36,411 bases of DNA from Clostridia bacterium (GTDB taxonomy: Bacteria > Bacillota > Clostridia > Oscillospirales > CAG-272): contig JAFVRI010000166.1 in the NCBI GenBank assembly GCA_017504335.1, positions 1 through 36,411 on the forward strand. The letters run 5' to 3'. The notes under the pieces are model-generated. The model saw nothing but the letters and a program-made list of their open reading frames with translations. It did no database searches and was not told the origin of the DNA. The position numbers were made by a program, and so were the translations under genes. Every line of letters begins with the position of its first letter. The stretch's first letter is position 1. Positions 1 through 31,819 of this stretch are shown here, in pieces.

Positions 1-2974
1 CGTAAGAAATTGCTTCGAACGCGTCAAAGATCCGCTCCGAAACGACCTTCCGCATCCGATCGGGATCCACCTTCAACACCTTGCGGTCGTAGGTGAGAAG
101 TCCGTTGGTCTCGTCCTCCACGTCGCTGACCTGAGTGAGGATGGCGCCTGCCAAACCCTTTTGGATGGCGGGAACGATCTCGGAACGATACAGCTCCTCC
201 AGATCTCTTTGAAGCGTCTCGGGATCGGCACAGGTCTTGTAGCCGTAGGTCTTGTCCAGATTGAAGGCATGGTCAGACAGCTTGCAGGAATATCCGCCAA
301 ACTCCGAAAGGATCACGGGCAGTTCCCCATAGGAAAGATCCACGGGCTTGAAATACACGTGCTCGCTCTGTACGTCGCTTTCCTTCGGGATGAACCACCC
401 CGATGCGGTGTCATACACACGGGTGGGATCCAATTCCTTCAGCTCTCGGTAGATCCGCTCCGCCCCCGCATACTGTCCCCAGCCCTCGTTGAAAATGGTG
501 TAATATACCACGGAAGGATGATTGTACAACAGAGAAACCGTCCCACGGGCACTGCACTCAAAATCCCTGCGGCGGCGGGCAGAGACGCGGTGACCGCGGC
601 GCTGCTTGAATCCTACCGTGGGAAGTACCGTATCCGCAAGAAAATGATACTTGCCGTTGTTCACCATGTCCTGAAGCACCAACATTCCCTGACGGTCGCA
701 TTCGTAATAAAAGACCGCAGGCTCGATCTTGATGTGCTTCCGAAGGGCGTTGAAGCCGCAGGACTTCATCTGACGCACGTCGCCTGCGTACCCCTCGGGA
801 GTAGCGGGCAGGTAGATGCCGTCGCTGAAATAGCCCTGATCCAACAGCCCGTGAATGAAATAAGGCTTGCCGTTCAGATAGCATGCCGCCCTACCCTTCT
901 CCCGCCTTGCCTCAAAGGTGCGCAGAGCGAAATAGGATTCGATGCGGTCCTCTCCGCACTCCAAGATGAAGGAATACAGATGCGGATGTTCAGGCGACCA
1001 CAAAATGGGATCGTCGAGAACCAACGTAAAGGAATCTCCCTCGTAGGTGTAGATCTTCTCTTCCCCATTCAAGATAAGGCGCAGCTTCTTGTTCGCTTCT
1101 CCCCCTTCGGTCTCGATGGTCACCGAGTTCAACGTAGGGGTCAATCGAAGATTACGGATATATTCCTTCGGCACGCGCTCCAGCCAAACGGGCTGCCAGA
1201 TGCCACTTGTGGGCGTGTACCACATCCCGCCCCGTTTCTTTCTCTGCTTGCCGTAGCAAAGCTCCGTGTCGGTTTGATCGGTGACCGTCACCGAAAGCAG
1301 ATTGTCGCCCACATGGGCATGCTCGCAAAGATCAAAGGAGAACGGAAGATAACCGCCCTCATGTCTGCCGAGAAGAATGCCGTTCAGCGAAACCTCGGCG
1401 ATCTGATCCACCGCACCGAAGTGCAGCAACAGATGCCCTCTGAGCTCCTCATGGGTCAGAGTCACCCTGCGCTCATAGAGATATCGTTCTCCCTTTTTCA
1501 AGGTTCGTCCGATCCCCGACAGCTCACTTTCGGGCGGAAACGGCACACGGACAATTCCGAGAGAACGACGCTCCCCTCCTTGCAGCACCGACAGCTCCCA
1601 TTCCCCCGACAGAGAGCGGAAGGAATTCCGCTTCATTTGCGGCCTCGGATATTCCTCCTCCCATTCCCTCCCCGTAGCGGATTCCTCAAAGGGAGTGGAG
1701 AGACGGACGGTTCGTCCGCGGCGAAAAAGAAGCGACAGAAGAAGCAAAATCACAAGAGCGAAAATGGCAAGAAGAGCCGCCAAGAAAATATTGGCATTTG
1801 GGATAAAGGAGGTAGTTCCGTCGGAATTGGTGACCGTCTCGGCATTGGCAAGCACCGCGCTTCCGATGGCGGGACCGATCAGCCCCGGAAGAAGCACCTG
1901 AGAGGTAATGCGGATGCCCTGCAGCCGTCCTGCCCGACCCTCGGGGGTCAGATCGCGGATCTTGGCGCCGAATACCGCCATGCCCGACAGATAGCCGCAC
2001 ATCATCAAAAGCGAGCCTGCAAACACCGCGGGGGTGGTGCGGAAGAAAAAGAGAATCAGGTATCCCGCCATCAGCCATCCGAGGGCGATCCACACCGAGA
2101 AGGAAAATCCCTTTTTGTCGTAGACCTTGCCCCAGATCGCCGTCACAACCGACGCAAGCACAATGGCAGGCGCCATGATCAGCACGTAGTCGGCAAGCCC
2201 CAAGGACTTCTCGTAGTAAAGAATCAGATAGGGCATGAAGATCTGAATGGAAATATTGAACAGAATAAACAGAACAAAATGAAAATACAGCGAGGGGTTT
2301 TTGCGGACGGTAGCGGGACGGAAGCCGTAGATCACATTCGACCAATATCCCGTTTCAGAGCGAACGGTGCTTTTGGGCTCCTTGATGAGAAATAGACCGA
2401 GGATGCCCACCAGAAGCACCACCGAGCCGATGATGCAGAAGATCCACGTCCAGCTGGCGGGAACGGTGAGATCAAAGAACATAAAGCCGCCGAACACCGC
2501 GAGAATGGCGCAAAGGGGCATCATGGAGTTGATCCCCTCGGCAGAGCCGCGGTTGGTCTCGTCGGTGCTATCGGTGAGCCACGCGTTGAAGGCGGCATCG
2601 TTGGCGGACGATCCAAAGAAGGTCATCAGGCAATCCAACGCGATGACGATGAGAATGCCCAGCGCCGCCGCCGTGACCGTCATGGATAGCGCAAAGCCGA
2701 AGATGGAGACGCCCCATAGAATATAGCCGCCGCAAATAAAGAGCTTGCGCTTTCCGATGCGGTCGGACAGAGCGCCGATAAACACCGTGGTGACCGCTGC
2801 CGAAACGGCGCTTGCCGCCACCATGCGGCTGATATCCGCCGCGCTCGCGCGGAACATCTCGTAAATAAAAATATTCAGATACATATTCTCCACCACCCAG
2901 GCGATCTGCCCGATCAGGGAGAAGAGTGTCAGGGCGCACCAAAAGCGACCCGACAGCTTGGTCCTTGTGCTCAT
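1..2974 (-). CDS. MFS transporter (12 predicted TM segments) fused in frame to a glycoside hydrolase family 2 enzyme; the 3' end runs off the window
   Basis: ATG at 2974..2972 follows GGAGGT (plus-strand 2981-2986). Hand translation of the minus strand gives MSTRTKLSGRFWCALTLFSLIGQIAWVVENMYLNIFIYEMF..., MFS motif GALSDRIGKRK and 12 hydrophobic segments. The linker ...LFRRGRTVRLSTPFEESATGREWEEEYPRPQ is followed by MKRNSFRSLSGEWEL... with GH2 hallmarks (LNGILLGRHEGGYLPFSFDL, NHPSVVYYTIFNEGWG, VILSEFGGY). 2974-1636=1338 is divisible by 3. I found no stop when checking codon by codon across 1636-1723. The ORF track lists no stop-terminated minus ORF in this frame, as expected if it stays open to position 1. 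Confidence 0.8.
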   Translation of the reverse strand, partial: MSTRTKLSGRFWCALTLFSLIGQIAWVVENMYLNIFIYEMFRASAADISRMVAASAVSAAVTTVFIGALSDRIGKRKLFICGGYILWGVSIFGFALSMTVTAAALGILIVIALDCLMTFFGSSANDAAFNAWLTDSTDETNRGSAEGINSMMPLCAILAVFGGFMFFDLTVPASWTWIFCIIGSVVLLVGILGLFLIKEPKSTVRSETGYWSNVIYGFRPATVRKNPSLYFHFVLFILFNISIQIFMPYLILYYEKSLGLADYVLIMAPAIVLASVVTAIWGKVYDKKGFSFSVWIALGWLMAGYLILFFFRTTPAVFAGSLLMMCGYLSGMAVFGAKIRDLTPEGRAGRLQGIRITSQVLLPGLIGPAIGSAVLANAETVTNSDGTTSFIPNANIFLAALLAIFALVILLLLSLLFRRGRTVRLSTPFEESATGREWEEEYPRPQMKRNSFRSLSGEWELSVLQGGERRSLGIVRVPFPPESELSGIGRTLKKGERYLYERRVTLTHEELRGHLLLHFGAVDQIAEVSLNGILLGRHEGGYLPFSFDLCEHAHVGDNLLSVTVTDQTDTELCYGKQRKKRGGMWYTPTSGIWQPVWLERVPKEYIRNLRLTPTLNSVTIETEGGEANKKLRLILNGEEKIYTYEGDSFTLVLDDPILWSPEHPHLYSFILECGEDRIESYFALRTFEARREKGRAACYLNGKPYFIHGLLDQGYFSDGIYLPATPEGYAGDVRQMKSCGFNALRKHIKIEPAVFYYECDRQGMLVLQDMVNNGKYHFLADTVLPTVGFKQRRGHRVSARRRRDFECSARGTVSLLYNHPSVVYYTIFNEGWGQYAGAERIYRELKELDPTRVYDTASGWFIPKESDVQSEHVYFKPVDLSYGELPVILSEFGGYSCKLSDHAFNLDKTYGYKTCADPETLQRDLEELYRSEIVPAIQKGLAGAILTQVSDVEDETNGLLTYDRKVLKVDPDRMRKVVSERIFDAFEAISY

Positions 2975-3004
2975 ACCGTTACCTCCGCTTGTATTTCTTT
3001 CTTC

Positions 3005-3033
3005 ATTGTATCATGAGTGCAATCGCATTGCAA
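3005..3033 (-). promoter_or_regulatory. sigma-70-type promoter for the MFS-GH2 gene, overlapped by a palindrome
   Basis: The minus strand reads TTGCAA (3033..3028), a 17-nt spacer, then TACAAT (3010..3005) with an upstream TG (extended -10). The palindrome TGCAAT-cgc-ATTGCA at 3018-3032 overlaps the -35. Confidence 0.55.
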
Positions 3034-3064: not shown

Positions 3065-3904
3065 TTACTCCCCTGCCTTCATTCGCTTGAGATCGGCAGA
3101 GGGTGACAGTCCCGTTACCCGTGTATAGTTGCGGTAAAACACCGAATAATCCCCGAAGCCGCTGGCGAGAAACGCGGCATTGATGCTTCCGCTCACGTAC
3201 AGCTCCTGTCGGGCATTGAAGATCCGCTTACGGATCACATATTCCCAGATCCCGCATCCCATCACCGACTTGAAGCAACGGTTGAGCGTCGCCTTATCTC
3301 TGAAAAATTCCTTCTCCAGAAGCGAAAGACTCAAGGGGGCGGTCAGATTGCGGTTCACATAGCGAACGATCTCGCGCACCGTCTCATTTTCGGGGTCGTC
3401 CGCCCCGGATGATAAGGCAGCCAGGCTCTTCATTTTTACAAGAAGCATCCGAAGGAAGGAGAGCAGCGCGTCTCTGCGCTCGACATCCTCCTCCGTGCCT
3501 CCCTCGATCGCCATACAGCACTCTTCAAACCAGACCTGCTCCCGTCCGTTCAGATGAAACACGTGATGTCCCCGCTCAGCGGAGCGGATCAGCTCCTCTG
3601 CCGATTCGGGTAAGAGCTTCATGCCGAACATCAAAACGATCCGCTCATAGGGTGTTCCCCTATTTCGAACATTCAAGTGATGCACCTGACCGCCCGCGGA
3701 CAGGATCAAGGTTCCCTTTGACAAAGGATAGGTCACGCCCTCTACCGTAAAATCCCCATCGCCTCCCGCGAAGTAATACAGCTCATGCATATGGTGAGAA
3801 TGCAAACGAAAGGGAAAATTATCGGGATCGGGCGAGGGTGTCACCGTGTGGTGAAAGTATAACTGCTCGTCGCGGTACGAAAAAAGTACGGTTTGGTTCA
3901 TCAT
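3065..3904 (-). CDS. AraC family transcriptional regulator (cupin-like N-terminus plus C-terminal HTH)
   Basis: Track ORF 3065..4081, trimmed to MMNQTVLFSYRDEQ... at 3904 (AAAGGAG upstream). The cupin-like part is HSHHMHELYYFAGGDGDFTVEG. The C-terminal AraC HTH is ...INAAFLASGFGDYSVFYRNYTRVTGLSPS. Confidence 0.85.
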   Translation of the reverse strand: MMNQTVLFSYRDEQLYFHHTVTPSPDPDNFPFRLHSHHMHELYYFAGGDGDFTVEGVTYPLSKGTLILSAGGQVHHLNVRNRGTPYERIVLMFGMKLLPESAEELIRSAERGHHVFHLNGREQVWFEECCMAIEGGTEEDVERRDALLSFLRMLLVKMKSLAALSSGADDPENETVREIVRYVNRNLTAPLSLSLLEKEFFRDKATLNRCFKSVMGCGIWEYVIRKRIFNARQELYVSGSINAAFLASGFGDYSVFYRNYTRVTGLSPSADLKRMKAGE

Positions 3905-4031
3905 GAAGCTCCTTTTATCAAGAGATATCTGTGGACCGAAGAAAATTTGAGCCTCCCCTTGTGAGGGAAGTGGGGACAGGCAAAGCCGTGGATGATTCGG
4001 TACAAAAGCAATCTCCTTTGCTTTCCCATCC

Positions 4032-4060
4032 ATTATATCACAATATGTCACGATTTGCAA
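4032..4060 (-). promoter_or_regulatory. promoter of the AraC regulator gene
   Basis: The minus strand reads TTGCAA (4060..4055), a 17-nt spacer, then TGATATAAT (extended -10, TATAAT at 4037..4032). The same 12-mer ATTATATCACAA also forms the -10 of the second AraC gene at 15996-16007. Confidence 0.55.
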
Positions 4061-4110
4061 TAAAAAAGCTGATATTTGCAATGGACTTGCAAAAAAAGAT
4101 AGTTTATAAT
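4053..4110 (+). promoter_or_regulatory. activator-type promoter region of the nagB-like operon, with two direct repeats
   Basis: ATTTGCAAT occurs at 4053-4061 and 4074-4082, 21 bp apart (two helical turns). The repeats abut the -35 position of a TATAAT at 4105-4110, which has no good -35 hexamer at 17 bp. This geometry is typical for AraC-family activators. Confidence 0.5.
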
Positions 4111-4134
4111 GATGTCAACAGGAGGTGTATTACT

Positions 4135-4902
4135 ATGAAAATCATTCAAAAAGACAAAATGACCGTAAAAATTTACGAAACCAGAGCCGCTATGGGTGCG
4201 GCTGCCGCAGCGGACATTGCCGCTTGCATCCACAAGCTGCTCGCGGAAAAGGACGAGATCTACATGATCTTCGCCGCCGCTCCCTCTCAGAACGAGTCCC
4301 TGCGCGGACTGCTGGAGGATAAGACCATTCCGTGGAACCGAATCCATGCTTACCACATGGACGAGTACGTGGGCATCTCCCCCGAGGCTCCTCAGGGCTT
4401 TGCCATGTTCCTTCGGAACGCGCTCTTTGATCACGTTCCCTTCGCGTCGGTGAATCTCATCGACTGCACCGCCGAGGCTGAGACTGAGGCAAAGCGCTAC
4501 TCCGCTCTTCTTGCCGAGCATCCCGCCGACATCGTCTGCATGGGCATCGGAGAGAACGGACACATCGCCTTCAATGACCCCCATGTTGCCGACTTCAACG
4601 ATCCCGCTCTCGTGAAGGTAGTGGATCTGGACGAGACCTGCCGTATGCAGCAGGTTCACGACGGCTGCTTCGCAACCCTTGCGGACGTACCGAAGTACGC
4701 GCTGACTCTGACGGTCCCCACCCTGGCAAACGCTCCTTACCGTTTCTGCGTGGTTCCCGCCGCCACCAAGGCGCAGGCAGTTCGCAACACGGTAGAGGGT
4801 GAGATCGGCGCGGCTTGCCCCGCAACGGTTCTTCGTCTGAAGGACAATTCGATCATGTACTGCGACGCGGACAGCGCATCGCTTCTCTCGGAGGGTCTTT
4901 GA
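4135..4902 (+). CDS. glucosamine-6-phosphate deaminase/isomerase family protein (NagB/6-phosphogluconolactonase superfamily)
   Basis: ATG at 4135 follows AGGAGGTG (4120-4127) and is in frame with track ORF 3931..4902. Motifs are HAYHMDEYVG and GIGENGHIAFNDP. Confidence 0.85.
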   Translation: MKIIQKDKMTVKIYETRAAMGAAAAADIAACIHKLLAEKDEIYMIFAAAPSQNESLRGLLEDKTIPWNRIHAYHMDEYVGISPEAPQGFAMFLRNALFDHVPFASVNLIDCTAEAETEAKRYSALLAEHPADIVCMGIGENGHIAFNDPHVADFNDPALVKVVDLDETCRMQQVHDGCFATLADVPKYALTLTVPTLANAPYRFCVVPAATKAQAVRNTVEGEIGAACPATVLRLKDNSIMYCDADSASLLSEGL

Positions 4903-4903
4903 G

Positions 4904-5797
4904 ATGAACGGAAAGCTCCCCTTTTCCGTAGGTGTCATCACCGATGAGGTATCCCAATCCCTTGCCGTTGCCATTGAATTCTGCAAGCAATTTGGTCTGA
5001 CCGCCTTAGAGCTTCGCTCGGTGGACGGTGTCTCTCCCTTTGACTGGACCGAGGCGCAGGTCAAGGACATGAAGGCGCTCTGCGACGAGCACGGCATGCA
5101 GGTGGTCGCCATCTCCGCTCCGCTCTTCAAGTGCGAGATCGGGGATACGGACGCGGTTGCCAATCACGTGGCATCCTTCGAGCGTCTTTGCGGCTTTGCG
5201 AAGATCCTCGATGCGGACCTCATCCGCGGCTTCGATTTCTGGGAATGCGGTGCTTCTCTCGAAGATCGCGCCAAGAAATACGCGCCCATCATCGAGCTGT
5301 GTGAGAAATATGACGTCTTTTGCGCATTGGAGTATGATCCTTCGGTTCATTCCTCTGATCCCTTGAAGCTCTCGGAGATGGTCAATGCCATCAACCACAA
5401 GAGAATCGGAGCCCTCTACGATCCCGGCAACGGACTTTACTCCGATCCCTCCATCGTTCCCTATCCTCAGGGTTATGAGGCGCTCAAGGATCGCCTCTGC
5501 CACATCCACGTAAAGGATGCGATCGCGTATGCCTCTCCCAAGGGAACCGAGGCGGTACGGGTAGGCGAGGGACAGGTGGATTGGCACGGTCTCTTTACCC
5601 GACTCCTCCGTGACGGATATGACGGATACGTCATGCTGGAGACCCACTATCGCAAGAACGTCATCCTCACCGAGGAGCAGCTGCAGCGTCCGGGCGGATA
5701 CGATTTCTCGGACGGTGCCTACGACGCGTCTCTTGAAAGCATGGAGTCTTTACTCCAAATCATAGAACAAGCAAGAAAGGAAGTAACACAATCATGA
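4904..5797 (+). CDS. sugar phosphate isomerase/epimerase (xylose-isomerase-like TIM barrel)
   Basis: 297-aa ORF with GGAGGG upstream that starts 1 nt after the preceding stop. The sequence pattern LELRSV...ISAPLF...IRGFDFW...ALEYDP...HIHVKD...MLETH is typical of the AP_endonuc_2/XI-like TIM family. Confidence 0.8.
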   Translation: MNGKLPFSVGVITDEVSQSLAVAIEFCKQFGLTALELRSVDGVSPFDWTEAQVKDMKALCDEHGMQVVAISAPLFKCEIGDTDAVANHVASFERLCGFAKILDADLIRGFDFWECGASLEDRAKKYAPIIELCEKYDVFCALEYDPSVHSSDPLKLSEMVNAINHKRIGALYDPGNGLYSDPSIVPYPQGYEALKDRLCHIHVKDAIAYASPKGTEAVRVGEGQVDWHGLFTRLLRDGYDGYVMLETHYRKNVILTEEQLQRPGGYDFSDGAYDASLESMESLLQIIEQARKEVTQS

Positions 5798-6864
5798 ACA
5801 TGCTGAACGTAGCCATTATCGGACAAGGAAGAAGCGGACGTGACATTCACGGTGCCTTCTTCAAAAGCGAATTGAATACAAAATACCGCGTAGTAGCGGT
5901 AGTCGACGCACTTCCCGAGCGCAGAGAGCGCGCAAAACAGGAATGGGGCGAGGGTGTAGACGTATACGAAAGCTACACCGAGCTGTACGGAAGAACCGAC
6001 ATTGACGTGGTCGTCAACAGCACCTTCTCCCACATGCATGCCGCAGTAACCGAGGATCTTCTGCTCCACGGCTTCAACGTGGTCTGTGAAAAGCCCTTCG
6101 CCCGTACCTACGAGGAAGGCGCTCACGCAGTCAAGGTTGCGGAGAAGAGCGGCAAGATGCTGAACATTTTCCAGCAGTCCCGCTTTGCTCCCTACTACGT
6201 AAAGATCCGCGAGATCATTGATTCCGGTATTCTGGGTGATCCCGTACAGATCGCCATCAGCTTCTCCGGCTATGCCCGCCGTTGGGACTGGCAGACCTCT
6301 TTGGCTTACGGTGGAGGCAACCTGCGCAACACCGGACCTCATCCCTTGGATCAGGCATTGGATTGGCTGGACTTTGACGAGAACATCCGTGTTCTTTCCC
6401 GCATGACCACGGTCAACACCGCGGGAGATGCCGAGGACTACGCAAAGATCCTCATGGATTGCCCCGGCAAGCCTCTTATTGACGTAGAGATCTCCTCTTG
6501 CGATGCTTACCTGCCCTACACCTACCGCATCTCCTGTACCAAGGGTTGTCTCCGTTCCACCCATAAGGTCATCGAGATGAAGTATTTCGATCCCGAGGCT
6601 CAGCCCATTCCCGCTCAGGTACTGGCTCCCCTTTGCAAGGAGGACGGTACCCCCGCATACTGCTCCGAGACCCTTGATTGGAAGGAAGAGACCATCCAGC
6701 TGGAGGGAACCGCCTTCACCTACGCGGTTCGTTCCTACTACGATATGATCTACGATTATCTGGTAGACGGCAAGCCCATGAAGATCACCCCCTATCAGGT
6801 TCTCCGCCAGCTCCGTCTCATCGATGAGATCCGTGCGCAGAATCCTCTGCCTCTGAAGGATTGA
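5794..6864 (+). CDS. Gfo/Idh/MocA family oxidoreductase
   Basis: N-terminal Rossmann motif VAIIGQGRSGRDIH and the EKP motif (VVCEKPFA). An ATGA start/stop overlap with the upstream gene lies at 5794-5797. Confidence 0.9.
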   Translation: MNMLNVAIIGQGRSGRDIHGAFFKSELNTKYRVVAVVDALPERRERAKQEWGEGVDVYESYTELYGRTDIDVVVNSTFSHMHAAVTEDLLLHGFNVVCEKPFARTYEEGAHAVKVAEKSGKMLNIFQQSRFAPYYVKIREIIDSGILGDPVQIAISFSGYARRWDWQTSLAYGGGNLRNTGPHPLDQALDWLDFDENIRVLSRMTTVNTAGDAEDYAKILMDCPGKPLIDVEISSCDAYLPYTYRISCTKGCLRSTHKVIEMKYFDPEAQPIPAQVLAPLCKEDGTPAYCSETLDWKEETIQLEGTAFTYAVRSYYDMIYDYLVDGKPMKITPYQVLRQLRLIDEIRAQNPLPLKD

Positions 6865-6872
6865 GGTGCCAA

Positions 6873-7736
6873 ATGAAAAAGATCCGAATTGCCTTTCTCG
6901 GCACAGAAAATTCTCACGCGTTTGCCTTTTGCCGTGTTCTGTGCGGCAATCCCGATTATGCCGACATCGAGATCGTCGGTGCCTACGGGCCCGACGAAGA
7001 GGCAAACAAGCAGCTCCGTGATGCGGGCTACGTCTCCTACTTTGCCAAGACCCCCGATGAGTTCCTCGGCAAGGTAGACGCGGTGGTGGTGACCGCCCGT
7101 CACGGAGACCTGCACTATGAATATGCCATGCCCTATCTGAAGGCAGGCATTCATGCCTTCATCGACAAGCCCTTTACCGTAGATCTCTCAAAGGCACAGG
7201 AAATGTTCGACGTGGCAAACAAGACGGGCGCTCTGATGTGCGGCGGCTCCACGCTCCGCTTTTTGGATGAGTTCCGTCCTCTCGCGCGCTTCGTACAGAA
7301 AAACAAGGTGGTCTGCGGTCACGTTGCCGCTCCCATTGATATGGTCAACGAATACGGCGGATTTTACTTCTATGCCCAGCATCTGACCGAATCGGTGCTG
7401 ACCATCTTCGGCCCCAACGTTCGCTCGGTATTGGCGCGTGCCGCCGCTCCCGAGCAGAACCGTGTGAGCGTGATCTTCTCCTACGACGACTTTGACGTGG
7501 CGGGTACCTACACCTCCTCCTACACCTATGCCGCTCGCGTTATGGGTGAGAAGGAATGTCTGGATGTTCACACCGTCGGATCGGTCAGCTACGCCTACAC
7601 GTACGAAATCAACGAGATGGTGGAAATGTTCCGTACCGGCAAGCGTGCCACCGATGACGAGACCATGATCCGTCCTCTTCGCATTCTGCACGCCATTGAG
7701 GAATCCTACACCGCAGGCAAGGAAGTGACGCTGTGA
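6873..7736 (+). CDS. Gfo/Idh/MocA-like oxidoreductase (short, divergent)
   Basis: MKKIRIAFLGTENSHAFAF... with a DKP variant of the EKP motif (AFIDKPFT). I prefer the ATG at 6873 (GAGGTG upstream) to the TTG at 6861. Confidence 0.75.
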   Translation: MKKIRIAFLGTENSHAFAFCRVLCGNPDYADIEIVGAYGPDEEANKQLRDAGYVSYFAKTPDEFLGKVDAVVVTARHGDLHYEYAMPYLKAGIHAFIDKPFTVDLSKAQEMFDVANKTGALMCGGSTLRFLDEFRPLARFVQKNKVVCGHVAAPIDMVNEYGGFYFYAQHLTESVLTIFGPNVRSVLARAAAPEQNRVSVIFSYDDFDVAGTYTSSYTYAARVMGEKECLDVHTVGSVSYAYTYEINEMVEMFRTGKRATDDETMIRPLRILHAIEESYTAGKEVTL

Positions 7737-8854
7737 AAAAGTTTTATCAGAACGGTGTGATCATCACCGACGGCAAGGAGATCCGCGACATGGGAATCCT
7801 CACCGAGGATGGCAAGATCCTCGATCTGATCCCCTCTGCTCCCGCGGATGCCGAGATCGTGGAGCTTCACGGAAATTATATCCTGCCCGGACTCATTGAG
7901 CTGCACTGTCACGGCGGTGACGGCGCCGAGTTCATTGACGGCACCGAGGAGTCGATCCTTCGCGCCTGCCGTCTTCATGCCGACCACGGCACACGGGTGC
8001 TCTATCCCACCATTTCCGCCACCGATTACGATACCATGGTTCGGGCACTGGAGGCATTGGAAGCCTGCCGTGACCGTATGCCCCTGGAAATTCCCGGTGC
8101 CCATTTGGAGGGTCCCTATCTGGCGCCCGAAATGTGCGGTGCCCAGGATACAGCTGTGATCCGTCTGCCCAATCCCCAAGAATACGAGGCACTGGTGGAA
8201 CGGTTCGGCTCTCTCATTGCCCGTTGGAGCTATGCTCCCGAGCGGGACACGGACGGCAAATTCCTTGCCTTCCTGAAAAAGAAGGGCATCACCCCCGCCA
8301 CGGCGCATTCCTCCGCGGAATATTCCCACATGAAGGAAGCCCTTGCGGGCGGAAACCGTTTGGTGACCCATCTTTACTCCTGTACCTCGACCATCACCCG
8401 CCACGGCGGCTTCCGCCATCTGGGTGTCATTGAGTCTGCCTTCCTCATGGATGACATTTATGTGGAGACCATTGCGGACGGCTGTCATCTCCCTCCTGAG
8501 CTTCTGCGCATGATCGTGAAGATCAAGGGTGTGGATCGCGTATGTCTGGTGACCGATGCCATTCGCTTCGGCGGCTTGACTGCCGGTGAGGTAGGCGGTT
8601 CGGTTCCCTATGTCATTGAGGACGGTGTAGCAAAGCTCGCGGATCGCTCCGCCTTTGCGGGTAGCATCGCCACCGCCGATATGCTCATCGAGCGTACCGT
8701 CCGCGCCGGCTTCTCCCTGCCCGACACGGTGCGCATGATGACCGAGACCCCCGCTACCCTGATGGGTCTTTCCACCAAGGGACACATCGCCCGTGGCTAC
8801 GATGCCGATTTCACGGTATTGGATCGGGACTTGAAGAGTGTAGCGGTTGGTTAA
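7733..8854 (+). CDS. nagA: N-acetylglucosamine-6-phosphate deacetylase-like amidohydrolase
   Basis: Metal-binding motif LIELHCHGGDGAEFIDG of the Bacillus-type NagA, and the fold marker ...VTDAIRFGG... The GTG start overlaps the upstream stop (GTGA at 7733-7736). Confidence 0.8.
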   Translation: MKKFYQNGVIITDGKEIRDMGILTEDGKILDLIPSAPADAEIVELHGNYILPGLIELHCHGGDGAEFIDGTEESILRACRLHADHGTRVLYPTISATDYDTMVRALEALEACRDRMPLEIPGAHLEGPYLAPEMCGAQDTAVIRLPNPQEYEALVERFGSLIARWSYAPERDTDGKFLAFLKKKGITPATAHSSAEYSHMKEALAGGNRLVTHLYSCTSTITRHGGFRHLGVIESAFLMDDIYVETIADGCHLPPELLRMIVKIKGVDRVCLVTDAIRFGGLTAGEVGGSVPYVIEDGVAKLADRSAFAGSIATADMLIERTVRAGFSLPDTVRMMTETPATLMGLSTKGHIARGYDADFTVLDRDLKSVAVG

Positions 8855-8860
8855 TGAATT

Positions 8861-9041
8861 CGTTACGACTCGTTTTTTCCGCTTTTAGAAAAAGCTTGGC
8901 AAAACTTTCATACAAATTATGACTTGACCCTTGTACATTCTTCTCGTCATGATTTTGCAGTAAAATATTGTTTTTCTCTAAGGTAGAAAACCATCGGACG
9001 GCTACACGTGCTACGCACAGCCACCGATGGTTTTCTTTTTG
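8861..9041 (+). repeat. family T repeat, copy A (3' of the nagA-like gene)
   Basis: It starts 7 nt after the stop. The order is TTACGAC (8863-8869), palindrome GCTTTTAGAAAAAGC, GCAAAACTTTCATACAAATTATGACTTGACCCTTGTACATTCTTCTCGTCATGATTT, then TTTCTCTAAGGTAGAAAACCATCGG...CCGATGGTTTTC TTTTT (hairpin 8986-9035 plus T-run). Confidence 0.85.
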
Positions 9042-9050
9042 TATTTATAA

Positions 9051-9203
9051 CGGGACGTCGAGGACGTCGTCCCCTACAAGATAGAAATTATTTGTCGTAC
9101 ATTCTCCTAAATAAACAAAGGCATACCCGATTGCTTATTTATTTAGGAAAATTGCATTGGCATCCCTCTATCATTTGTAGGGGGCGACGTCCTCGACGCC
9201 CCG
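9051..9203 (+). repeat. family H long-hairpin element, copy H1 (MITE-like)
   Basis: 27-nt terminal inverted repeats: CGGGACGTCGAGGACGTCGTCCCCTAC (9051-9077) and GTAGGGGGCGACGTCCTCGACGCCCCG (9177-9203). An inner inverted repeat is TCCTAAATAAA...TTTATTTAGGA. The element begins about 10 nt after the T-run of copy A. Confidence 0.8.
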
Positions 9204-9302
9204 AGAAACAATCGCATCCCGTTTTCTTCTTGTGTGAATCCTTCTGTGAAAATGCTCCCTCCGGGAGGGAGCTGAAAGCGACTGAGGGAGAGTGCGATCA
9301 CA
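9204..9302. repeat. GC-rich hairpin block
   Basis: Perfect palindrome GCTCCCTCCGGGAGGGAGC at 9254-9272, followed by GAAAGCGACTGAGGGAGAGTG. The segment GAAACAATCGCATCCC (9206-9221) recurs inverted at 18199-18214 next to copy H2. Confidence 0.5.
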
Positions 9303-9390
9303 ATAAAGAGAGACGGAACATCGCGGGCGAGCAATCAACCTACCAAATCGTTCAAGTCATTTTTTCATCGTTCATTCTTTTCCGATTCCC

Positions 9391-9420
9391 TTGACAAAGG
9401 CGGAAGAATTCTGTTATAAT
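9391..9420 (+). promoter_or_regulatory. promoter of the metallophosphoesterase/GH20 operon
   Basis: TTGACA (9391-9396), an 18-nt spacer, then TGTTATAAT (extended -10, TATAAT at 9415-9420). Confidence 0.6.
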
Positions 9421-9455
9421 GAAGGAAACAATTTATAACCAAAGGAGACCGAAAC

Positions 9456-10310
9456 ATGGAAACGGTTGAAAAGAAATACCCCCGTTGGTCGGAGATCACC
9501 ATTGACGTAGGAGCCACTGCTCCCTTCCGCGTGTTGCACATGAGCGACACTCATCTGACCGAAGCGGACGAGCGGGACGATGACCGCAAGCTCGCCTTAG
9601 CGGCACAGCGAAGCAAATATTTCGCCCGCGCGGGAATTTTGGTGGAGAGCGCGACCGAATACGCAAAAAAAGAAGGCGTTCCGATCTTCCATACGGGAGA
9701 TCTGATCGACTTCGTTTCTTATAAAAATCTGGACGTTGCCCGTACTTTTTCCGAGGAAAACGATCTGTTTATGGCAGCGGGCAACCACGAATTCAGCCTT
9801 TACGTAGGAGAGGCAGTTGAGGATGCCGCCTACCGTGCGCAGAGCCTTGACAAGGTACAGGCTGCCTTTAAGAACGACATCCGTTTTTCCAAGCGAGAGA
9901 TGGGTGGCGTGAATTTCGTGGCGTTGGATAACTCCTACTATCTCATTGAGGAATGGCAGCTGAATGCCCTCAAGGAGGTGGTTGCCGAGGGAAAGCCCGT
10001 GGTTCTGCTCATCCACAACCCGCTTTACTGTGAAGCACTTTACAACCATGAAATCGTAGAAAAGAAATCGGACTCCGCCTATCTGATGGCAGTTCCCGAG
10101 GAAAAAATGAAGGGCTACAGCGAACACCGCTTCCGTCAGCAGAAGGCAGACGAGACCACCCTTCTCGCCTATGACTACATCTGCTCCGAGCCCACCATCC
10201 GTGCTATCCTAACGGGTCATTTGCACGAGGATGCCGAATATGCCATCAATGACCGTCTGACCCAGTACATGACCCGATGCACCACCCTGAAGATCGTAAA
10301 TTTCCGGTAA
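9456..10310 (+). CDS. metallophosphoesterase (calcineurin-like)
   Basis: AAAGGAG RBS. Motifs are VLHMSDTHL, HTGDLIDF, AAGNHEF and LIHNP...GHLH. Confidence 0.85.
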   Translation: METVEKKYPRWSEITIDVGATAPFRVLHMSDTHLTEADERDDDRKLALAAQRSKYFARAGILVESATEYAKKEGVPIFHTGDLIDFVSYKNLDVARTFSEENDLFMAAGNHEFSLYVGEAVEDAAYRAQSLDKVQAAFKNDIRFSKREMGGVNFVALDNSYYLIEEWQLNALKEVVAEGKPVVLLIHNPLYCEALYNHEIVEKKSDSAYLMAVPEEKMKGYSEHRFRQQKADETTLLAYDYICSEPTIRAILTGHLHEDAEYAINDRLTQYMTRCTTLKIVNFR

Positions 10311-10325
10311 AAGGAGACAAAAAGC

Positions 10326-12176
10326 ATGAAAGTCAAGTTTTCGATTCCCGAAGAATTTTCCGTCGGCATTGCCCGCCTGCTTCCGCTTTTGGACTGTGAG
10401 GAGGGCGATGACATCCTCGTCCGTGCCGAGGCATCCGACCGTACGGGTGTGACCCTTCATAACGGTGAAGCGATCATTTACTACACAAAAAAACACCTCT
10501 TCTTCCGTGAGCTGTCGGTGCTTCTGACCGAGGCGAAGGAAAAGGACTCCTTCGAATGGTGGGAGGACGGTCACTTTGAGACGGTCTCTACCATGATCGA
10601 TACCTCCCGTTGTGCGGTCCCCACCGTCAAGACCGTGAAGAATCTGATCGACCGACTGGTGCTGATGGGCTACGGCATGGTCATGCTCTACACCGAGGAC
10701 GTGCTGACCCTTCCGAACCGCCCCTATTTCGGCTATATGCGCGGTCGCTACACCCCCGAGGAATTGCGTGCCGTGGACGACTATGCCTTCGAATACGGCA
10801 TTGAGGTCATTCCCTGTCTCGAATGCTACGGTCACATGGAAAAGTATCTCATGTGGAAGGAGGCATCTCCCATCAAGGATACGGCAAGGGTGCTTCTGGC
10901 AAGAGAGGAAAAGACCTTTGACTTTCTGGACGAGCTGATCGGTACGGTCTCTGCCTGCTTCCGCTCCCGCCGCATTCACATCGGCATGGACGAGGCATGG
11001 GATATGGGACGCGGAAAGTTTTTGGACAGAAACGGCTACGTTCCTGCCTTTGAGATCTTCAACGAATACATGGAGCGGCTGATCTCCATTACAAGGAAAT
11101 ACGGACTTCGCCCCATGATGTGGAGCGATATGTACTTCCGTGTCTGCCATCCGAAGCACAAATATTGCGCCCCCGAAACCGAAATCCCACCCGAGGTAGC
11201 GAAAAGAATCCCCGCCGAGGTGGAGCTGGTATTCTGGCATTACGGTGAGGAGTACGGCAGTGATGATTACATGCTCAAAAAGCACAAGGCGCTAAATCGT
11301 TCCGTGATCTTCGCGGGCGGTCTTTGGAGCTGGATCGGTCATTTTCCCGAGCATTATTACACCATGGATTGCACAAAGCAGTCTCTGCTTGCCTGCCGCG
11401 CAAATGACGTGCGGGAAGCCATGGCGACCCTTTGGACCAATGACAATGCCGAGTGCGATTGGTACACAAATCTGTTCGGACTCTCCTATTTCGCGGAGCT
11501 TTGCTACGACAAAGACCCGACCGAAGAAAAGCTGCGTCGCCGTTTCCATGCGGTCAGCGGCGGTAACTATGATGCCTTCCTGCTCATGAGCGACTACCAC
11601 AACAAGGATCTTGCCAAGGACTATGAGAACTATTCTCACCGCTTCCTCGGAAAGCCTCTCTTCTGGCAGGACATTATGGAGGGTCTCTATGACAGTCACT
11701 TAGAGGGCCATCCCATGAGTTCGCACTATGCCGAGGCGACCCGCCGTATGGCAGCCTACGCGGATGCCGAGGGCGAATGGCAGTTCCTCTACTCCTTTGC
11801 AGCCAAGGTCTTTGACTACATGGGCGTCAAAACCCTGATTGCCGAAAATCTGGTATCAGCTTACAAGCGGGGAGACCGCGCGCTTCTTTCGGAGATTGCC
11901 GAGATCCTGCTCCCTGCCCTCAAGGATGCCGTCATCCGTGTTCACGAGGCGCATAAGGCGATCTGGTTCAAGCACAATAAGATCATCGGTTGGTCCAACC
12001 TCGACGTGCGCTATGCCGGTGTTGCCGCCCGTTGCGATACCGCAAAGGCGCTCATCGAAGCCTACCTCGCAGGGGAGCTCGACTCCCTCGAAAAATTGGA
12101 CGAGCCCCGTCTCCACAAGCCCTTAGACGGATTTGTGCAGTACAGCGCCATCGCTACGCCGAATCTGAAAACGTGA
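10326..12176 (+). CDS. GH20-like beta-N-acetylhexosaminidase family protein
   Basis: AAAGGAG RBS. The segment order matches the GH20 catalytic barrel: MIDTSRC, MLYTED, IEVIPCLECYGHM, RIHIGMDEAWD (the D-E catalytic pair position). Confidence 0.7.
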   Translation: MKVKFSIPEEFSVGIARLLPLLDCEEGDDILVRAEASDRTGVTLHNGEAIIYYTKKHLFFRELSVLLTEAKEKDSFEWWEDGHFETVSTMIDTSRCAVPTVKTVKNLIDRLVLMGYGMVMLYTEDVLTLPNRPYFGYMRGRYTPEELRAVDDYAFEYGIEVIPCLECYGHMEKYLMWKEASPIKDTARVLLAREEKTFDFLDELIGTVSACFRSRRIHIGMDEAWDMGRGKFLDRNGYVPAFEIFNEYMERLISITRKYGLRPMMWSDMYFRVCHPKHKYCAPETEIPPEVAKRIPAEVELVFWHYGEEYGSDDYMLKKHKALNRSVIFAGGLWSWIGHFPEHYYTMDCTKQSLLACRANDVREAMATLWTNDNAECDWYTNLFGLSYFAELCYDKDPTEEKLRRRFHAVSGGNYDAFLLMSDYHNKDLAKDYENYSHRFLGKPLFWQDIMEGLYDSHLEGHPMSSHYAEATRRMAAYADAEGEWQFLYSFAAKVFDYMGVKTLIAENLVSAYKRGDRALLSEIAEILLPALKDAVIRVHEAHKAIWFKHNKIIGWSNLDVRYAGVAARCDTAKALIEAYLAGELDSLEKLDEPRLHKPLDGFVQYSAIATPNLKT

Positions 12177-12360: not shown

Positions 12361-12580
12361 AATAAAAAAGAAAACCATCGGTGTCCTCCTTCGCTTCGCT
12401 TCGGGACATATGCTTGCGCATATGTTGGCTCAGCAACGCAGTCCGATGGTTTTCTACCTTAGAGAAAAAACAATATTCTTTTACGCAAATCATGACGAGA
12501 ACAATGCACAAAGGTCAAGCCAAAACAAGTAATAAAGTTTTTGCGCCACTTTTTTCAAAAAGTGGCAAATCGCGTCCCTC
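12361..12580 (-). repeat. family T repeat, copy B2 (3' end of the LacI gene, overlapping its last codons and stop)
   Basis: The minus strand reads GGGACGCGATTTGCCACTTTTTGAAAAAAGTGGCGCAAAAACTTTATTAC...GGCTTGACCTTTGTGCATTGTTCTCGTCATGATTTGCG...TTTTCTCTAAGGTAGAAAACCATCGG-(about 60-nt loop insert)-CCGATGGTTTTC TTTTTT. It lies convergent with copy B1. Confidence 0.85.
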
Positions 12581-13532
12581 TCAGCTCCGATGGCAGGCGG
12601 GTGAATTTTTCGTCGGGGAAAATGCCGGATTCCACGTATCGGTTAGCAAGGGAGAGTGCCTTGCGCATCTGCGTTTCGGGGGATTGAATCGCCAGAGCGG
12701 CGATCCGACCGTTTTCCCAATGCTTTTGTGCCGTAGGGGGAAACTCGAAGCCGATATAGCGGCAATCCATGCGATCCTTTAATTTATAGAGCGCATCGCA
12801 AGCGGAGGCGGTCACACCGTCAAAACCGAAAAGATAATCGAGCTTCTTTCCCGACCCGTCAATGGTTCGGGCAAGGTGGGAGGCATAGAGCGCAGAGGCT
12901 TCGGGTGGATCGATCATGAGGATCTCCGCACAGTCACCGAGCCCATCCGAGAATCCTCGCACACGCTCGATAGCGGAAACGCTTCCGTTGGGGCGAAGAA
13001 CCCCAACTGTCGGGCACTGCCCTCCATCGAACCGCACCGCCTCGGCAAGCGCCAATCCGTCTTCGTAAAAATCCGATCCCACAAAAAAGGTGTTCGGGAT
13101 AGGCGTATATTCGCAAAGCTGAAGAATCAGCATTCTGTCCGCCAGCCGAGCCAGCTCCTCTCGGAGTTCCTCTCCTGGAAGGGCGGCAAGGATCACCGCC
13201 GACACGCCCGCCTCAACAGCTTGGGAGAGACAAAGAGAAACTTCTCGATCTTCCCTGTCACGGTGCATAGCGGAATAGATCTTCAGCGTCTCGTTTTTAC
13301 CGCCCAAAACCGCCAGTGCCCGATTCCAGAAAAACTTGGGATTGTCGGGAAGAATCACACAAATACCGTTTCCTTCCCTGCGAGATGCCAAGGGTTCTCC
13401 CGCGCATACCGCGGCGCGTACCGCCTCTCTCGTCTCGTAATCGACCCCGGGGCAATTTCGGAGAACCTTGCTGACCGTAGAGACACTTTTGCCGCTTCGG
13501 TTGGCAATCTCGGTCATACTTTGTTTACTCAT
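12555..13532 (-). CDS. LacI family transcriptional regulator
   Basis: Track ORF 12555..13622, trimmed to MSKQSMTEIANRSGKSVSTVSKVLRN (LacI-type HTH) at 13532, with a G-rich SD upstream. The rest resembles a periplasmic-binding-protein-like sugar-binding core. Confidence 0.85.
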   Translation of the reverse strand: MSKQSMTEIANRSGKSVSTVSKVLRNCPGVDYETREAVRAAVCAGEPLASRREGNGICVILPDNPKFFWNRALAVLGGKNETLKIYSAMHRDREDREVSLCLSQAVEAGVSAVILAALPGEELREELARLADRMLILQLCEYTPIPNTFFVGSDFYEDGLALAEAVRFDGGQCPTVGVLRPNGSVSAIERVRGFSDGLGDCAEILMIDPPEASALYASHLARTIDGSGKKLDYLFGFDGVTASACDALYKLKDRMDCRYIGFEFPPTAQKHWENGRIAALAIQSPETQMRKALSLANRYVESGIFPDEKFTRLPSELRGTRFATF

Positions 13533-13568
13533 TCCAAAAATCCCCCCTATATTTGTGCATCTTGTACA

Positions 13569-13597
13569 TTGACGGAAAATCTTCCTCATGTTACAAT
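13569..13597 (+). promoter_or_regulatory. promoter of the 433-aa Gfo/Idh/MocA gene
   Basis: TTGACG (13569-13574), a 17-nt spacer, then TGTTACAAT (extended -10, TACAAT at 13592-13597). Confidence 0.55.
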
Positions 13598-13646
13598 GAA
13601 TCCATCGGTTATATCTTATCATAAAAACAAAAAGGAGTCAACCACT

Positions 13647-15147: not shown

Positions 15148-15975
15148 TCAACGGTGCAGTCTGCGAAATTCGGAAGGACTCATTCCCTCGGTACGCCGAA
15201 AGATCGAGCAAAAATAGCTCACATCCTCAAAGCCGACCGAATAAGCAGCCTCCCGAATAGAGGTCTCGGGATGCTCCAAGAGAACCTCCTTGCATTTCCG
15301 TATCTTGACCATGTTGACATATTCAAGGGGCGTTTGACACATAACCCTTTTGAAGGACGCGCAAAAATGCTGTGGTGTACATCCGACCTGCTCCGCAAGC
15401 TCCGAGAGCGAGATCGGACGGTGATAATTTTGTTCGATGTAGGCAAGAACGGGACCGAGCTTCGCCAGACGATGGGTCATGGACGGTGTTTTTTCGGAGG
15501 AAAGAAACCGAAGAAGATCGGAAAGAATGGCGTATACCAAAGAGGAGCACAGAATATTTTTTGCGGGGAGAGCGGACACAGCCGTGTCATACAGATCCTC
15601 CAGCTTTCCCGCAAGCACATAGGGTGTAGTGACCGTCAGCACGCTTGATTCCCGAACACCCAGGATCTCTCGGATAAACCGCTCGGTTTCGGTTCCCGAA
15701 AAGATGATCCAATCCACGGTCCAACCGGGAGTCAGCGCGAAATATTCGTGGGGCTCGTTGGGAAAGAGAAGCATTCCCTTTCCCTCCTCCAACGTGTAGG
15801 TATTTCCCCGAAGATACAGCTCCCCCTTCCCCTCTCGGCATTGGATCCACTGATATCGGGGATGTCCGATGGGACGGTGAATATGCTCCTGCTCATACCG
15901 AATGCCAACCCCCGCAAAATAATATGGGAGCGTCAGGTCAAATTCCGTAGCGACGGGTAATATGAATTTTTTCAT
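15148..15975 (-). CDS. AraC family transcriptional regulator (cupin N-terminus plus HTH)
   Basis: ATG at 15975 (AGAGGTG RBS); the track start at 15984 is a GTG inside the RBS. The C-terminal HTH is ...AAYSVGFEDVSYFCSIFRRTEGMSPSEFR. Confidence 0.85.
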   Translation of the reverse strand: MKKFILPVATEFDLTLPYYFAGVGIRYEQEHIHRPIGHPRYQWIQCREGKGELYLRGNTYTLEEGKGMLLFPNEPHEYFALTPGWTVDWIIFSGTETERFIREILGVRESSVLTVTTPYVLAGKLEDLYDTAVSALPAKNILCSSLVYAILSDLLRFLSSEKTPSMTHRLAKLGPVLAYIEQNYHRPISLSELAEQVGCTPQHFCASFKRVMCQTPLEYVNMVKIRKCKEVLLEHPETSIREAAYSVGFEDVSYFCSIFRRTEGMSPSEFRRLHR

Positions 15976-15995
15976 AAAGATCACCTCTTTTATAG

Positions 15996-30553: not shown

Positions 30554-30751
30554 TTCCTTCTTCCCCCCCTTTTGGTTGTGCTTTCTCTTGTATTGTATCA
30601 TGAAAATCCATAAATTACAACCCCCATTTTTGAAGAAAAACAAAAGAACCTTATTGATTTTTCAAATTGTCTTATGAATCCTTCATGGAAAAGACGGGAA
30701 ATGTTTGCTATAATCTAATCAACACTTCAAGAAAGATGGAGGATTGTGATT

Positions 30752-31804: not shown

Positions 31805-31819
31805 GAGAGAAGAGTAGCG

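Follow-up and report, generated by a model that had tools for sequence, protein, structure and literature searches.

Contig JAFVRI010000166.1 of the Clostridia bacterium assembly GCA_017504335.1 (Oscillospirales, CAG-272), analyzed over its entire length of 36,411 nucleotides (nt) and hereafter called the window, raises the question of whether one gene at its left end encodes a permease of the major facilitator superfamily (MFS) covalently joined to a glycosidase of glycoside hydrolase family 2 (GH2), and what such a protein might do. An initial annotation, made from the DNA letters only, had proposed this fusion together with a cytoplasmic location of the glycosidase, a 30-codon linker, and an internal translation start. 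As a whole, that reading was partly supported. The fused MFS-GH2 gene is real, conserved, and widespread, and we assign a probability of roughly 70% to the interpretation that its product is a covalent import-and-cleave protein, in which the MFS half would take up glycosides and the tethered GH2 half would cleave them, most probably β-D-galactofuranosides.

The fused gene and its split relatives

Translation of the minus strand revealed 991 stop-free codons from window position 2974 to position 1, which rules out a chance open frame; the frame exits at the left edge of the window and thus of the contig. The fused open reading frame (ORF; 2974..2, minus strand) is truncated solely by the contig end, and because homologues terminate close to this point, the window protein should lack no more than a few C-terminal residues. 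The MFS start at 2974 and the methionine at 1636 (Met447, nt 1636-1634) are in the same frame, as initially claimed. Pfam assigned MFS_1 to residues 30 to 368 (100 bits, E = 1.6e-28, cut-off 33.4) and the GH2 domains PF02837, PF00703, and PF02836 to residues 496 to 602, 617 to 685, and 730 to 857, respectively, all above the cut-off. A strong Shine-Dalgarno (SD) motif, GGAGG, can be read from the sequence 7 nt 5' of the ATG at 2974 (2982..2986, minus strand), and a consensus scan placed a promoter-like site, TTGCAA-17-TACAAT with an upstream TG, directly 5' of the fused gene (3005..3033, minus strand); since the scan returned 4 sites where 2.5 were expected, this site alone is weak evidence. 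The databases contain an identical protein (P0001), labeled "MAG: MFS transporter, partial [Clostridia bacterium]" (MAG, metagenome-assembled genome).

A trivial explanation would be that an error in sequencing or assembly, or a recent mutation in the MAG, had turned adjacent permease and glycosidase genes into one. The window is a metagenome-assembled contig, and two-gene relatives with overlapping ends exist, so that one indel could yield a false fusion. Against this stands the distribution of the protein. Among 5.8 billion clustered proteins, with NCBI, ENA, JGI, and Logan among the sources, all of the best 120 matches (120/120) were proteins of 983 to 1006 residues with MFS_1 and GH2 domains and 62 to 100% identity, and the same protein of about 1000 residues came from independent assemblies in each of these four sources. 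A profile search yielded 1740 clusters at E ≤ 1e-20; among the matches listed, the best 120 were all fused, and fused clades were added at 58 to 60%, 47 to 48%, and 42 to 44% identity, the last from Oscillibacter. The lowest-identity fused protein (P0139, 35%, 1045 residues, MFS_1 and GH2) emerged from an exhaustive search of 50%-identity representatives. A scan covering one genome per species, which sets a lower bound for the number of carriers, detected the fused gene in at least 580 species-level genomes, mostly herbivore-gut and other gut MAGs of Oscillospiraceae, Acutalibacteraceae, Christensenellaceae, and Lachnoclostridium; the cultured isolate [Clostridium] fimetarium DSM 9179 likewise possesses a fused ORF, of 1012 residues, located at L079 9998-13036. 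The junction sequence is itself conserved, and junction residues 400 to 470 were spanned by one tblastn high-scoring segment pair in a single frame in every one of the 80 loci from different species genomes. Two of 72 loci were automatically flagged "stop upstream"; this was an artifact of window size, as all 80 loci span the junction in one segment pair. The initial annotation had left it to the homologues, fused or split, to decide whether a stop codon had been lost or read through in assembly; with the in-frame fusion real and conserved across many independent assemblies, that explanation is refuted, and we see virtually no chance that an artifact underlies the gene. Over the MFS half, the median identity to the window protein was 65%, and over the GH2 half 54%; by these comparisons both halves are under purifying selection.

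The two halves also occur as separate genes. The closest free MFS protein (P0246), 48% identical to the MFS half, is encoded directly 5' of a free GH2 enzyme of the same clade, which has 567 residues and is 38% identical to the window GH2 (E = 4e-137); the two genes overlap by 14 nt. A census of 82 loci (80 from a metagenome scan led by the free MFS, plus loci L081 and L082) comprised 29 loci in which the MFS gene is immediately followed by a separate GH2 gene of the clade (35 to 52% identical to the window GH2), 8 with a fused gene, 31 without an adjacent GH2 gene, and 14 in which the contig end was too near for classification. In about 22 of the 29 split loci, the ATG of the GH2 gene lies within the 3' end of the MFS gene (24 by automatic assignment, 2 of them artifacts of the first-ATG rule), typical overlaps being 4, 8, 11, 14, or 17 nt; to judge from these overlaps, the split forms are probably translationally coupled. 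In L081, for example, the two genes of a split pair occupy 3347-4651 and 4638-6341. The initial idea that permease and glycosidase serve the same substrate gains support from the 29 loci in which the halves are adjacent and mostly overlapping genes. The existence of fused, split-coupled, and solitary states indicates that the functions of the two halves are tied, and a frame change within the overlap offers a simple route to fusion.

Several observations concern the wider range of both families. Solitary MFS relatives (e.g., L082, 6001-7329) are 39 to 50% identical to P0246, the family being broader than its partnership with GH2. One protein of 911 residues (P0133) carries the same GH2 behind a different N-terminal membrane domain of about 320 residues, with approximately 6 to 7 hydrophobic segments and no Pfam match; its junction to GH2, L-E-T-P-Y...W-x-EYPRPQLKR, is as in the window protein, and it represents either a second, independent membrane anchoring of GH2 or a very divergent or truncated transporter. 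Further partners of the GH2 clade, found in P0132, P0175, and P0250, are a C-terminal GDSL esterase, a C-terminal DUF2804, and an N-terminally placed GH127 C-terminal domain. The clade is thus unusually fusion-prone, although a GH2 census calls GH2_19 single-module. The contigs of P0131 and P0140, which are among the closest free GH2 enzymes, are only about 2 kb long, and their context is uninformative.

Architecture of the two halves and their junction

The MFS permease module comprises residues 1 to 418 (1721..2974, minus strand) with 12 transmembrane (TM) helices, as indicated by Pfam MFS_1, hydropathy, AlphaFold2, and Foldseek. Specifically, hydropathy analysis gave 12 membrane segments in the MFS half and none in the GH2 part, and the predicted inside loops contain 20 lysine and arginine residues versus 3 in the outside loops. 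Motif A (GALSDRIGKRK) is found in the TM2-TM3 loop, with G67, D71, G74, and R76 invariant in 58 aligned sequences. AlphaFold2 models, built on this 58-sequence alignment, had a mean predicted local distance difference test (pLDDT) score of 87 and a predicted TM-score (pTM) of 0.69 for the whole protein; for the MFS half alone, the values were 88 and 0.87. The model features twelve long helices, from H9-41 to H395-417, arranged in two six-helix halves that are separated by a central cytoplasmic loop (residues 197 to 226) with two short amphipathic helices (residues 210 to 225), and a β-hairpin (residues 380 to 390) in the external TM11-TM12 loop. The number of TM segments, the distribution of basic residues, and the modeled helices together place the GH2 module in the cytoplasm, as both MFS termini are in the topology predicted by the model; the initial assignment of 12 TM segments and a cytoplasmic GH2 is in agreement with all three.

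Foldseek recovered the MFS fold with TM-scores of 0.62 to 0.78 at 13 to 19% identity to NorA, sialin, DgoT, MdfA, NupG, MFSD2A, and others, with no preference for LacY or MelB, and a search of PDB sequences with the MFS half gave no match at E < 0.01. Pfam reported no PF13347 (MFS_2) match at E ≤ 0.01 for the window protein; precomputed PF13347 matches exist for a minority of homologues, the C. fimetarium copy scoring 27.1 bits at a cut-off of 27 over 108 residues only. The MFS half is a member of a distinct, uncharacterized MFS family that is not specifically LacY- or MelB-like. Six charged intramembrane residues (E29, D114, D126, E146, R340, and R355) are invariant in 58 of 58 sequences.

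The GH2 half, of approximately 570 residues, folds in the model into three domains. An N-terminal jelly-roll (residues 425 to 604, boundary approximate; 1163..1702, minus strand) is supported by Pfam GH2_N, conservation, and alignment with 7SF2 and 9J6N, and includes K576 and Y586, the counterparts of two O6-binding residues (K212 and Y228) of the Streptomyces galactofuranosidase described below. It is followed by an immunoglobulin-like middle domain (approximately residues 605 to 700; 875..1162, minus strand), which matches PF00703 at residues 617 to 685 and is all-β in the AlphaFold2 model, and by a TIM-barrel catalytic domain (PF02836; residues 701 to 991; 2..874, minus strand), which is cut off by the contig end. 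The closest PDB sequences were 7SF2 (E = 1e-92), the uncharacterized BACCELL_01794 of Bacteroides cellulosilyticus deposited as "beta-galactosidase"; 9J6N and 9J6M (5e-78), the β-D-galactofuranosidase ORF1110 of Streptomyces sp. JHA19; and 7XYR (6.5e-52), the next best match having an E value of 3e-20. Foldseek TM-scores followed the same order, with 0.86 to 0.89 for 9J6M/N and 7SF2, 0.79 for 7XYR, and at most 0.74 for glucuronidases and galactosidases. GH2 group III consists of the subfamilies GH2_18 and GH2_19 and is of the furanosidase type (PMC12243196). As the closest relatives by both sequence and structure all belong to group III, the module is placed there by alignment and modeling, as a furanosidase-type enzyme; a generic LacZ/GUS-type identity was not borne out by sequence, TM-score, or signature residues. 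By sequence, it is closer to 9J6N (GH2_18) than to 7XYR (GH2_19), whereas its cytoplasmic site fits GH2_19, the members of which are mostly non-secreted (PMC12243196).

Residues contacting a galactofuranose (Galf)-mimicking inhibitor in ORF1110 (PMC11627007) and the signature residues of a published supplement (PMC12243196) were mapped to the window protein through sequence alignment to 9J6N, in which the ORF1110 number equals the chain index plus 23. The predicted acid/base is Glu830 in the NE motif FNEGWGQY (485..487, minus strand), equivalent to E464, and the predicted nucleophile is Glu891 in LSEFGGY (302..304, minus strand), equivalent to E530. K212, Y228, R399, H401, N463, Y512, Y551, and E594 of ORF1110 correspond to K576, Y586, R745, H747, N829, Y874, Y912, and E955, respectively, and T586, which replaces the stacking tryptophan, to T947. 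In ORF1110, K212, Y228, H401, N463, Y551, and E594 contact O2/O3 and the exocyclic O5/O6 of Galf (PMC11627007). None of the mapped catalytic and Galf-binding positions varies among the 58 aligned sequences, which extend down to 37% identity, and H872 of the TIM barrel is equally invariant. The module is accordingly predicted to be a catalytically competent, complete three-domain exo-glycosidase.

The junction proved to be shorter than initially described. The stretch RRGRTVRLSTPFEESATGREWEEEYPRPQ, which had been described as a 30-codon linker, is present and free of stops; it is for the most part not a linker, but the conserved N terminus of the GH2 module, because L425, T427, E441, Y442, P443, R444, P445, and Q446 are conserved at 90 to 100% and because the N termini of free GH2 enzymes bear the same L.TP..//YPRPQ motifs. 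The conserved segment reads L425-x-TPFE...W-x-x-EYPRPQ; a free enzyme of the clade (L081), for instance, begins MKRINDN-LKTPEF...EYPRPQFKR. Representatives of the free GH2 enzymes align from window residues 423 to 441, corresponding to their own residues 3 to 25, and solved free GH2 enzymes begin to align at window residues 428 to 436. By column conservation in the homologue alignment, the true tether is RGRTVR (residues 419 to 424; 1703..1720, minus strand), a basic stretch of variable sequence and length. It spans about 7 residues in the window protein; the spacing from TM12 to TPFE, a wider measure, ranges from 8 to 16 residues in the 58 homologues. The pLDDT values of the junction are 75 to 85.

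Within this same conserved segment lies Met447 (1634..1636, minus strand), at which, using a GAGG located 6 nt upstream (1643..1646, minus strand), a free cytoplasmic GH2 enzyme might also be made from the same mRNA, as the initial annotation had suggested. Both the ATG and the GAGG are present in the window at this spacing, and methionine is the commonest residue at position 447 among close relatives (90% in an alignment of these). As a conserved start, however, the site was rejected. Of 72 copies, 43 have ATG as codon 447 and the other 29 a leucine, phenylalanine, or cysteine codon (CTN, TTA, TTT, or TGC), leucine being the 50% consensus in the 58-sequence alignment; the residue is part of a YPRPQ[ML]KR motif. 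An SD-like 4-mer at a distance of 4 to 16 nt from codon 447 occurs in 1 of 72 copies, namely that of the window, where it is a by-product of the AGG codon used for Arg444 on this contig; other copies have CGN or AGA. All naturally free GH2 enzymes of the clade start upstream of YPRPQ, the shortest N terminus being MLNAYPRPQ, so that a product initiated at Met447 would lack this near-invariant motif, of which Y442, P443, R444, and P445 are conserved at 97 to 100%. The consensus scan, moreover, found no promoter-like site upstream of 1636. A second, free product of the gene is thus very improbable.

Proposed function and its alternatives

In the interpretation that we favor, one gene would give rise to a protein of approximately 112 kDa in which about 7 residues tether the GH2 module to a canonical 12-helix MFS permease and would thereby keep the enzyme at the cytoplasmic face of the transporter. 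The MFS half, presumably a proton symporter, would import a small glycoside or oligosaccharide, with β-D-galactofuranose as the most probable terminus and α-L-arabinofuranose or β-galactopyranose as less probable ones, and the GH2 half would strip the terminal sugar as the substrate exits the permease. Cleavage at the exit might keep the internal substrate concentration low, the ratio of the two activities would be fixed at 1:1, and the gene could function wherever it lands in a genome. The fusion would most likely have arisen from an MFS-GH2 gene pair with ends overlapping by 4 to 17 nt, via a small frame-restoring change. The comparisons establish the fusion and its conservation, the topology and fold, the retention of catalytic and ligand-binding residues, and the occurrence of split as well as fused states; from these we infer in which direction the permease works, how transport is energized, what the substrate is, and whether one half passes it straight to the other.

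Several points weigh against this interpretation or limit it. Database names for the members read "MFS transporter" only. PDB sequence searches identified no close solved or characterized relative of the MFS half, and the fold search returned generic MFS proteins only. The pTM of 0.69 for the full-length model is not decisive with regard to docking of the active site on the permease exit. In 31 of the 82 census loci, the free MFS relative has no adjacent GH2 gene, which shows that the transporter family is not bound to the enzyme. The neighborhood of the fused gene in 80 genomes yields no clue to the substrate, and the assignment of the latter rests on 31 to 32% identity (structural alignment) to one characterized galactofuranosidase. 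Group III also includes an α-L-arabinofuranosidase and two β-galactosidases (PMC12243196), and the GH127 C-terminal domain fused to one relative points to arabinose-type glycans.

The last two points lead to the alternative that the architecture is as described and the substrates are α-L-arabinofuranosides, such as arabinan or arabinoxylan fragments, or β-galactopyranosides. The arabinofuranosidase of group III is from Thermotogae, and the group contains a bifunctional fungal enzyme as well (PMC12243196); carriers of the fused gene are mostly herbivore-gut Clostridia, living in a habitat rich in plant arabinose glycans, and the top sequence match, 7SF2, has the deposited name of a β-galactosidase, albeit for an uncharacterized protein. 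On the other hand, K212, Y228, and E594 of ORF1110, together with Y551, bind O5/O6, the group that separates Galf from arabinofuranose (Araf) (PMC11627007), and these discriminating residues are retained and invariant in the fused proteins. The stacking tryptophan of GH2 pyranosidases is replaced by threonine (T947). Furthermore, a galactokinase (GalKase_gal_bdg and GHMP kinase domains) is fused to the same GH2 clade in three proteins, N-terminally in P0144 and P0241 and C-terminally in P0135, with GH2 parts 43 to 50% identical to the window GH2 half; these fusions support galactose as the product and would link hydrolysis to phosphorylation of the freed sugar. Judged from these sequence features, we would put the substrate at about 50% Galf, 20% galactopyranose, 15% Araf, and 15% other sugars, and we regard a different sugar chemistry as a live alternative, if the less probable one.

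Quite another view would deny one of the halves its active role: the GH2 module might serve in sensing or regulation or be no more than a soluble attachment, or the MFS half might do nothing but anchor a glycosidase in the membrane. C-terminal regulatory domains do exist on some sugar transporters, the IIA-like domain of LacS being an example, and the NE motif is replaced in some GH2_19 members, including 7XYR (PMC12243196). In the fused proteins, by contrast, there is no substitution in the NE motif, at the nucleophile, or at any residue contacting the ligand (58/58, down to 37% identity), which speaks against loss of catalysis, and a passive anchor does not fit an MFS half that is more conserved than the GH2 half (65% versus 54%) and has invariant intramembrane charges. 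The split versions, too, retain the permease-then-glycosidase order with overlapping ends. We therefore give little credence to this view. A more far-reaching variant takes both halves as active and envisages a vectorial machine, in which the GH2 active site would be docked on the cytoplasmic exit of the MFS half, perhaps on the conserved central-loop helices (residues 210 to 225), and the substrate would pass directly from carrier to enzyme. Such an arrangement is compatible with the very short tether and its ordered state in the model, with the conservation of the junction, and with the apparent translational coupling of the split forms. If it existed, hydrolysis would make uptake effectively irreversible, a "group translocation by hydrolysis," and even a uniporter could possibly accumulate carbon without ion coupling. 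We consider direct passage of this kind unlikely, though less so than a regulatory or anchoring role, and retain the import-and-cleave protein as the preferred interpretation.

Genomic context, significance, and relation to known systems

De novo clustering of the flanking ORFs identified no family in more than 9 of the 80 fused-gene loci. The rare recurrent neighbors were a GH123-like protein encoded directly upstream (7/80), an SASA-type esterase 63 nt downstream (6/80), and an ABC solute-binding protein (8/80); examples of recurrent neighbors in other genomes are located at L040 2421-3989, L052 13008-14486, and L052 5272-6720. They are possible hints to the natural glycan, yet too rare to rely on. 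With no shared neighbors and with its own SD motif and promoter-like site, the fused gene behaves as a self-contained unit. A derivation of the substrate from the neighboring genes of the window was rejected, because in 80 further genomes none of them adjoins the fused gene.

The remainder of the contig is rich in genes of carbohydrate metabolism. The region 3065-12176 contains an AraC-type regulator gene upstream of the fused gene (4081..3065, minus strand) and a divergent plus-strand cluster. Besides a metallophosphoesterase and a GH20C hexosaminidase, this cluster specifies a NagB-like isomerase/deaminase, a xylose-isomerase-like TIM-barrel protein, a NagA-like amidohydrolase, and two Gfo/Idh/MocA oxidoreductases, a composition reminiscent of an amino-sugar pathway or an oxidative glycoside pathway. 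A third Gfo/Idh/MocA oxidoreductase is encoded next to a LacI-type regulator (13622..12555, minus strand). In its long plus-strand ORF (12876-14948), a Rossmann domain is found only at residues 267 to 384, so that the true start is probably near 13650; the minus-strand ORF 13638-14867 (409 residues, no Pfam match) is a shadow ORF. The contig also encodes a second enzyme that cleaves galactosides, a conventional GH42 β-galactosidase (16121-18154, plus strand; Pfam E = 1e-112), and adjacent to its gene a divergent AraC-type regulator (15984..15148, minus strand). An AraC-family regulator with a PocR sensory domain is encoded at 29723-30643 on the minus strand, and the ORFs beside it (30746-31804, plus strand; 30767-32455, minus strand) have no Pfam match.

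As the members are annotated only as MFS transporters, this glycosidase clade, with more than 1700 protein clusters and at least 580 species, may escape name-based surveys of the gut microbiome. The protein represents a natural 1:1 system for probing substrate channeling from transporter to enzyme, and the existence of fused, split-coupled, and solitary states makes a controlled comparison possible. The rigid soluble domain of about 65 kDa should also aid cryo-electron microscopy of a small MFS transporter. Galactofuranose is made by microbes and not by mammals (PMC12290620); if the Galf specificity holds true, the fused protein would provide gut Clostridia with a route to import and use galactofuranose-containing fragments, which is testable in the cultured carrier C. 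fimetarium DSM 9179. A full-text literature search, which was not exhaustive and did not cover TCDB or InterPro, returned nothing on an MFS-glycosidase fusion or on a Galf transporter of gut Clostridia, and a natural covalent permease-glycosidase fusion appears to be previously undescribed.

The logic of the proposed system is nevertheless known from the permease/glycosidase operon pairs of E. coli, LacY-LacZ, UidB(GusB)-UidA(GusA), and MelB-MelA, in which a secondary-active permease feeds a cytoplasmic glycosidase encoded next to it, in the Lac and Gus systems a GH2 enzyme. The 29 split loci described above show exactly this arrangement, whereas in the window protein permease and glycosidase are parts of a single chain, about 7 residues apart. 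The components differ as well: the MFS half is neither LacY-like nor clearly GPH-like, and the GH2 half belongs to group III and is not of the LacZ/GUS type. For the enzyme, the best comparison is with ORF1110 (GH2_18; 9J6M/9J6N) and 7SF2, which have the same three-domain fold (TM-score 0.86 to 0.89); ORF1110 also shares the catalytic pair, the Galf-contacting residues, and the threonine in place of the stacking tryptophan. ORF1110 is monomeric and its pocket is open and of the exo type (PMC11627007), properties that suit a 1:1 tethered arrangement. However, it is secreted with the aid of a signal peptide and has a C-terminal AbfB/CBM42-type domain, whereas the module in question, 31 to 32% identical, is cytoplasmic, lacks a signal peptide, and is joined at its N terminus to a transporter.

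The closest documented analogue that we found is LplT-Aas, an MFS lysophospholipid transporter and an acyltransferase, the genes of which are adjacent in many bacteria and fused in others; LplT and Aas form a complex as separate proteins, and the fused forms are uncharacterized (PMC11416262). There, too, an MFS protein passes its substrate to an enzyme on the cytoplasmic side, but it is a lipid that is passed on, and an acyltransferase/acyl-ACP synthetase that receives it; the sequence relation is limited to the MFS fold. A functional parallel is provided by the phosphotransferase system, which chemically converts each sugar at the inner membrane face as it enters and so prevents back-flux. 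The fused protein would likewise link uptake to instant chemical conversion at the inner face, but it has no phosphotransferase domains and a different membrane fold, no phosphoryl transfer is involved, and the chemistry would be hydrolysis. Overall, parts and logic are familiar; what makes the MFS-GH2 protein a good experimental system is that it is covalently built, abundant in gut Clostridia, probably active on Galf, and part of a natural series of fused and split forms.

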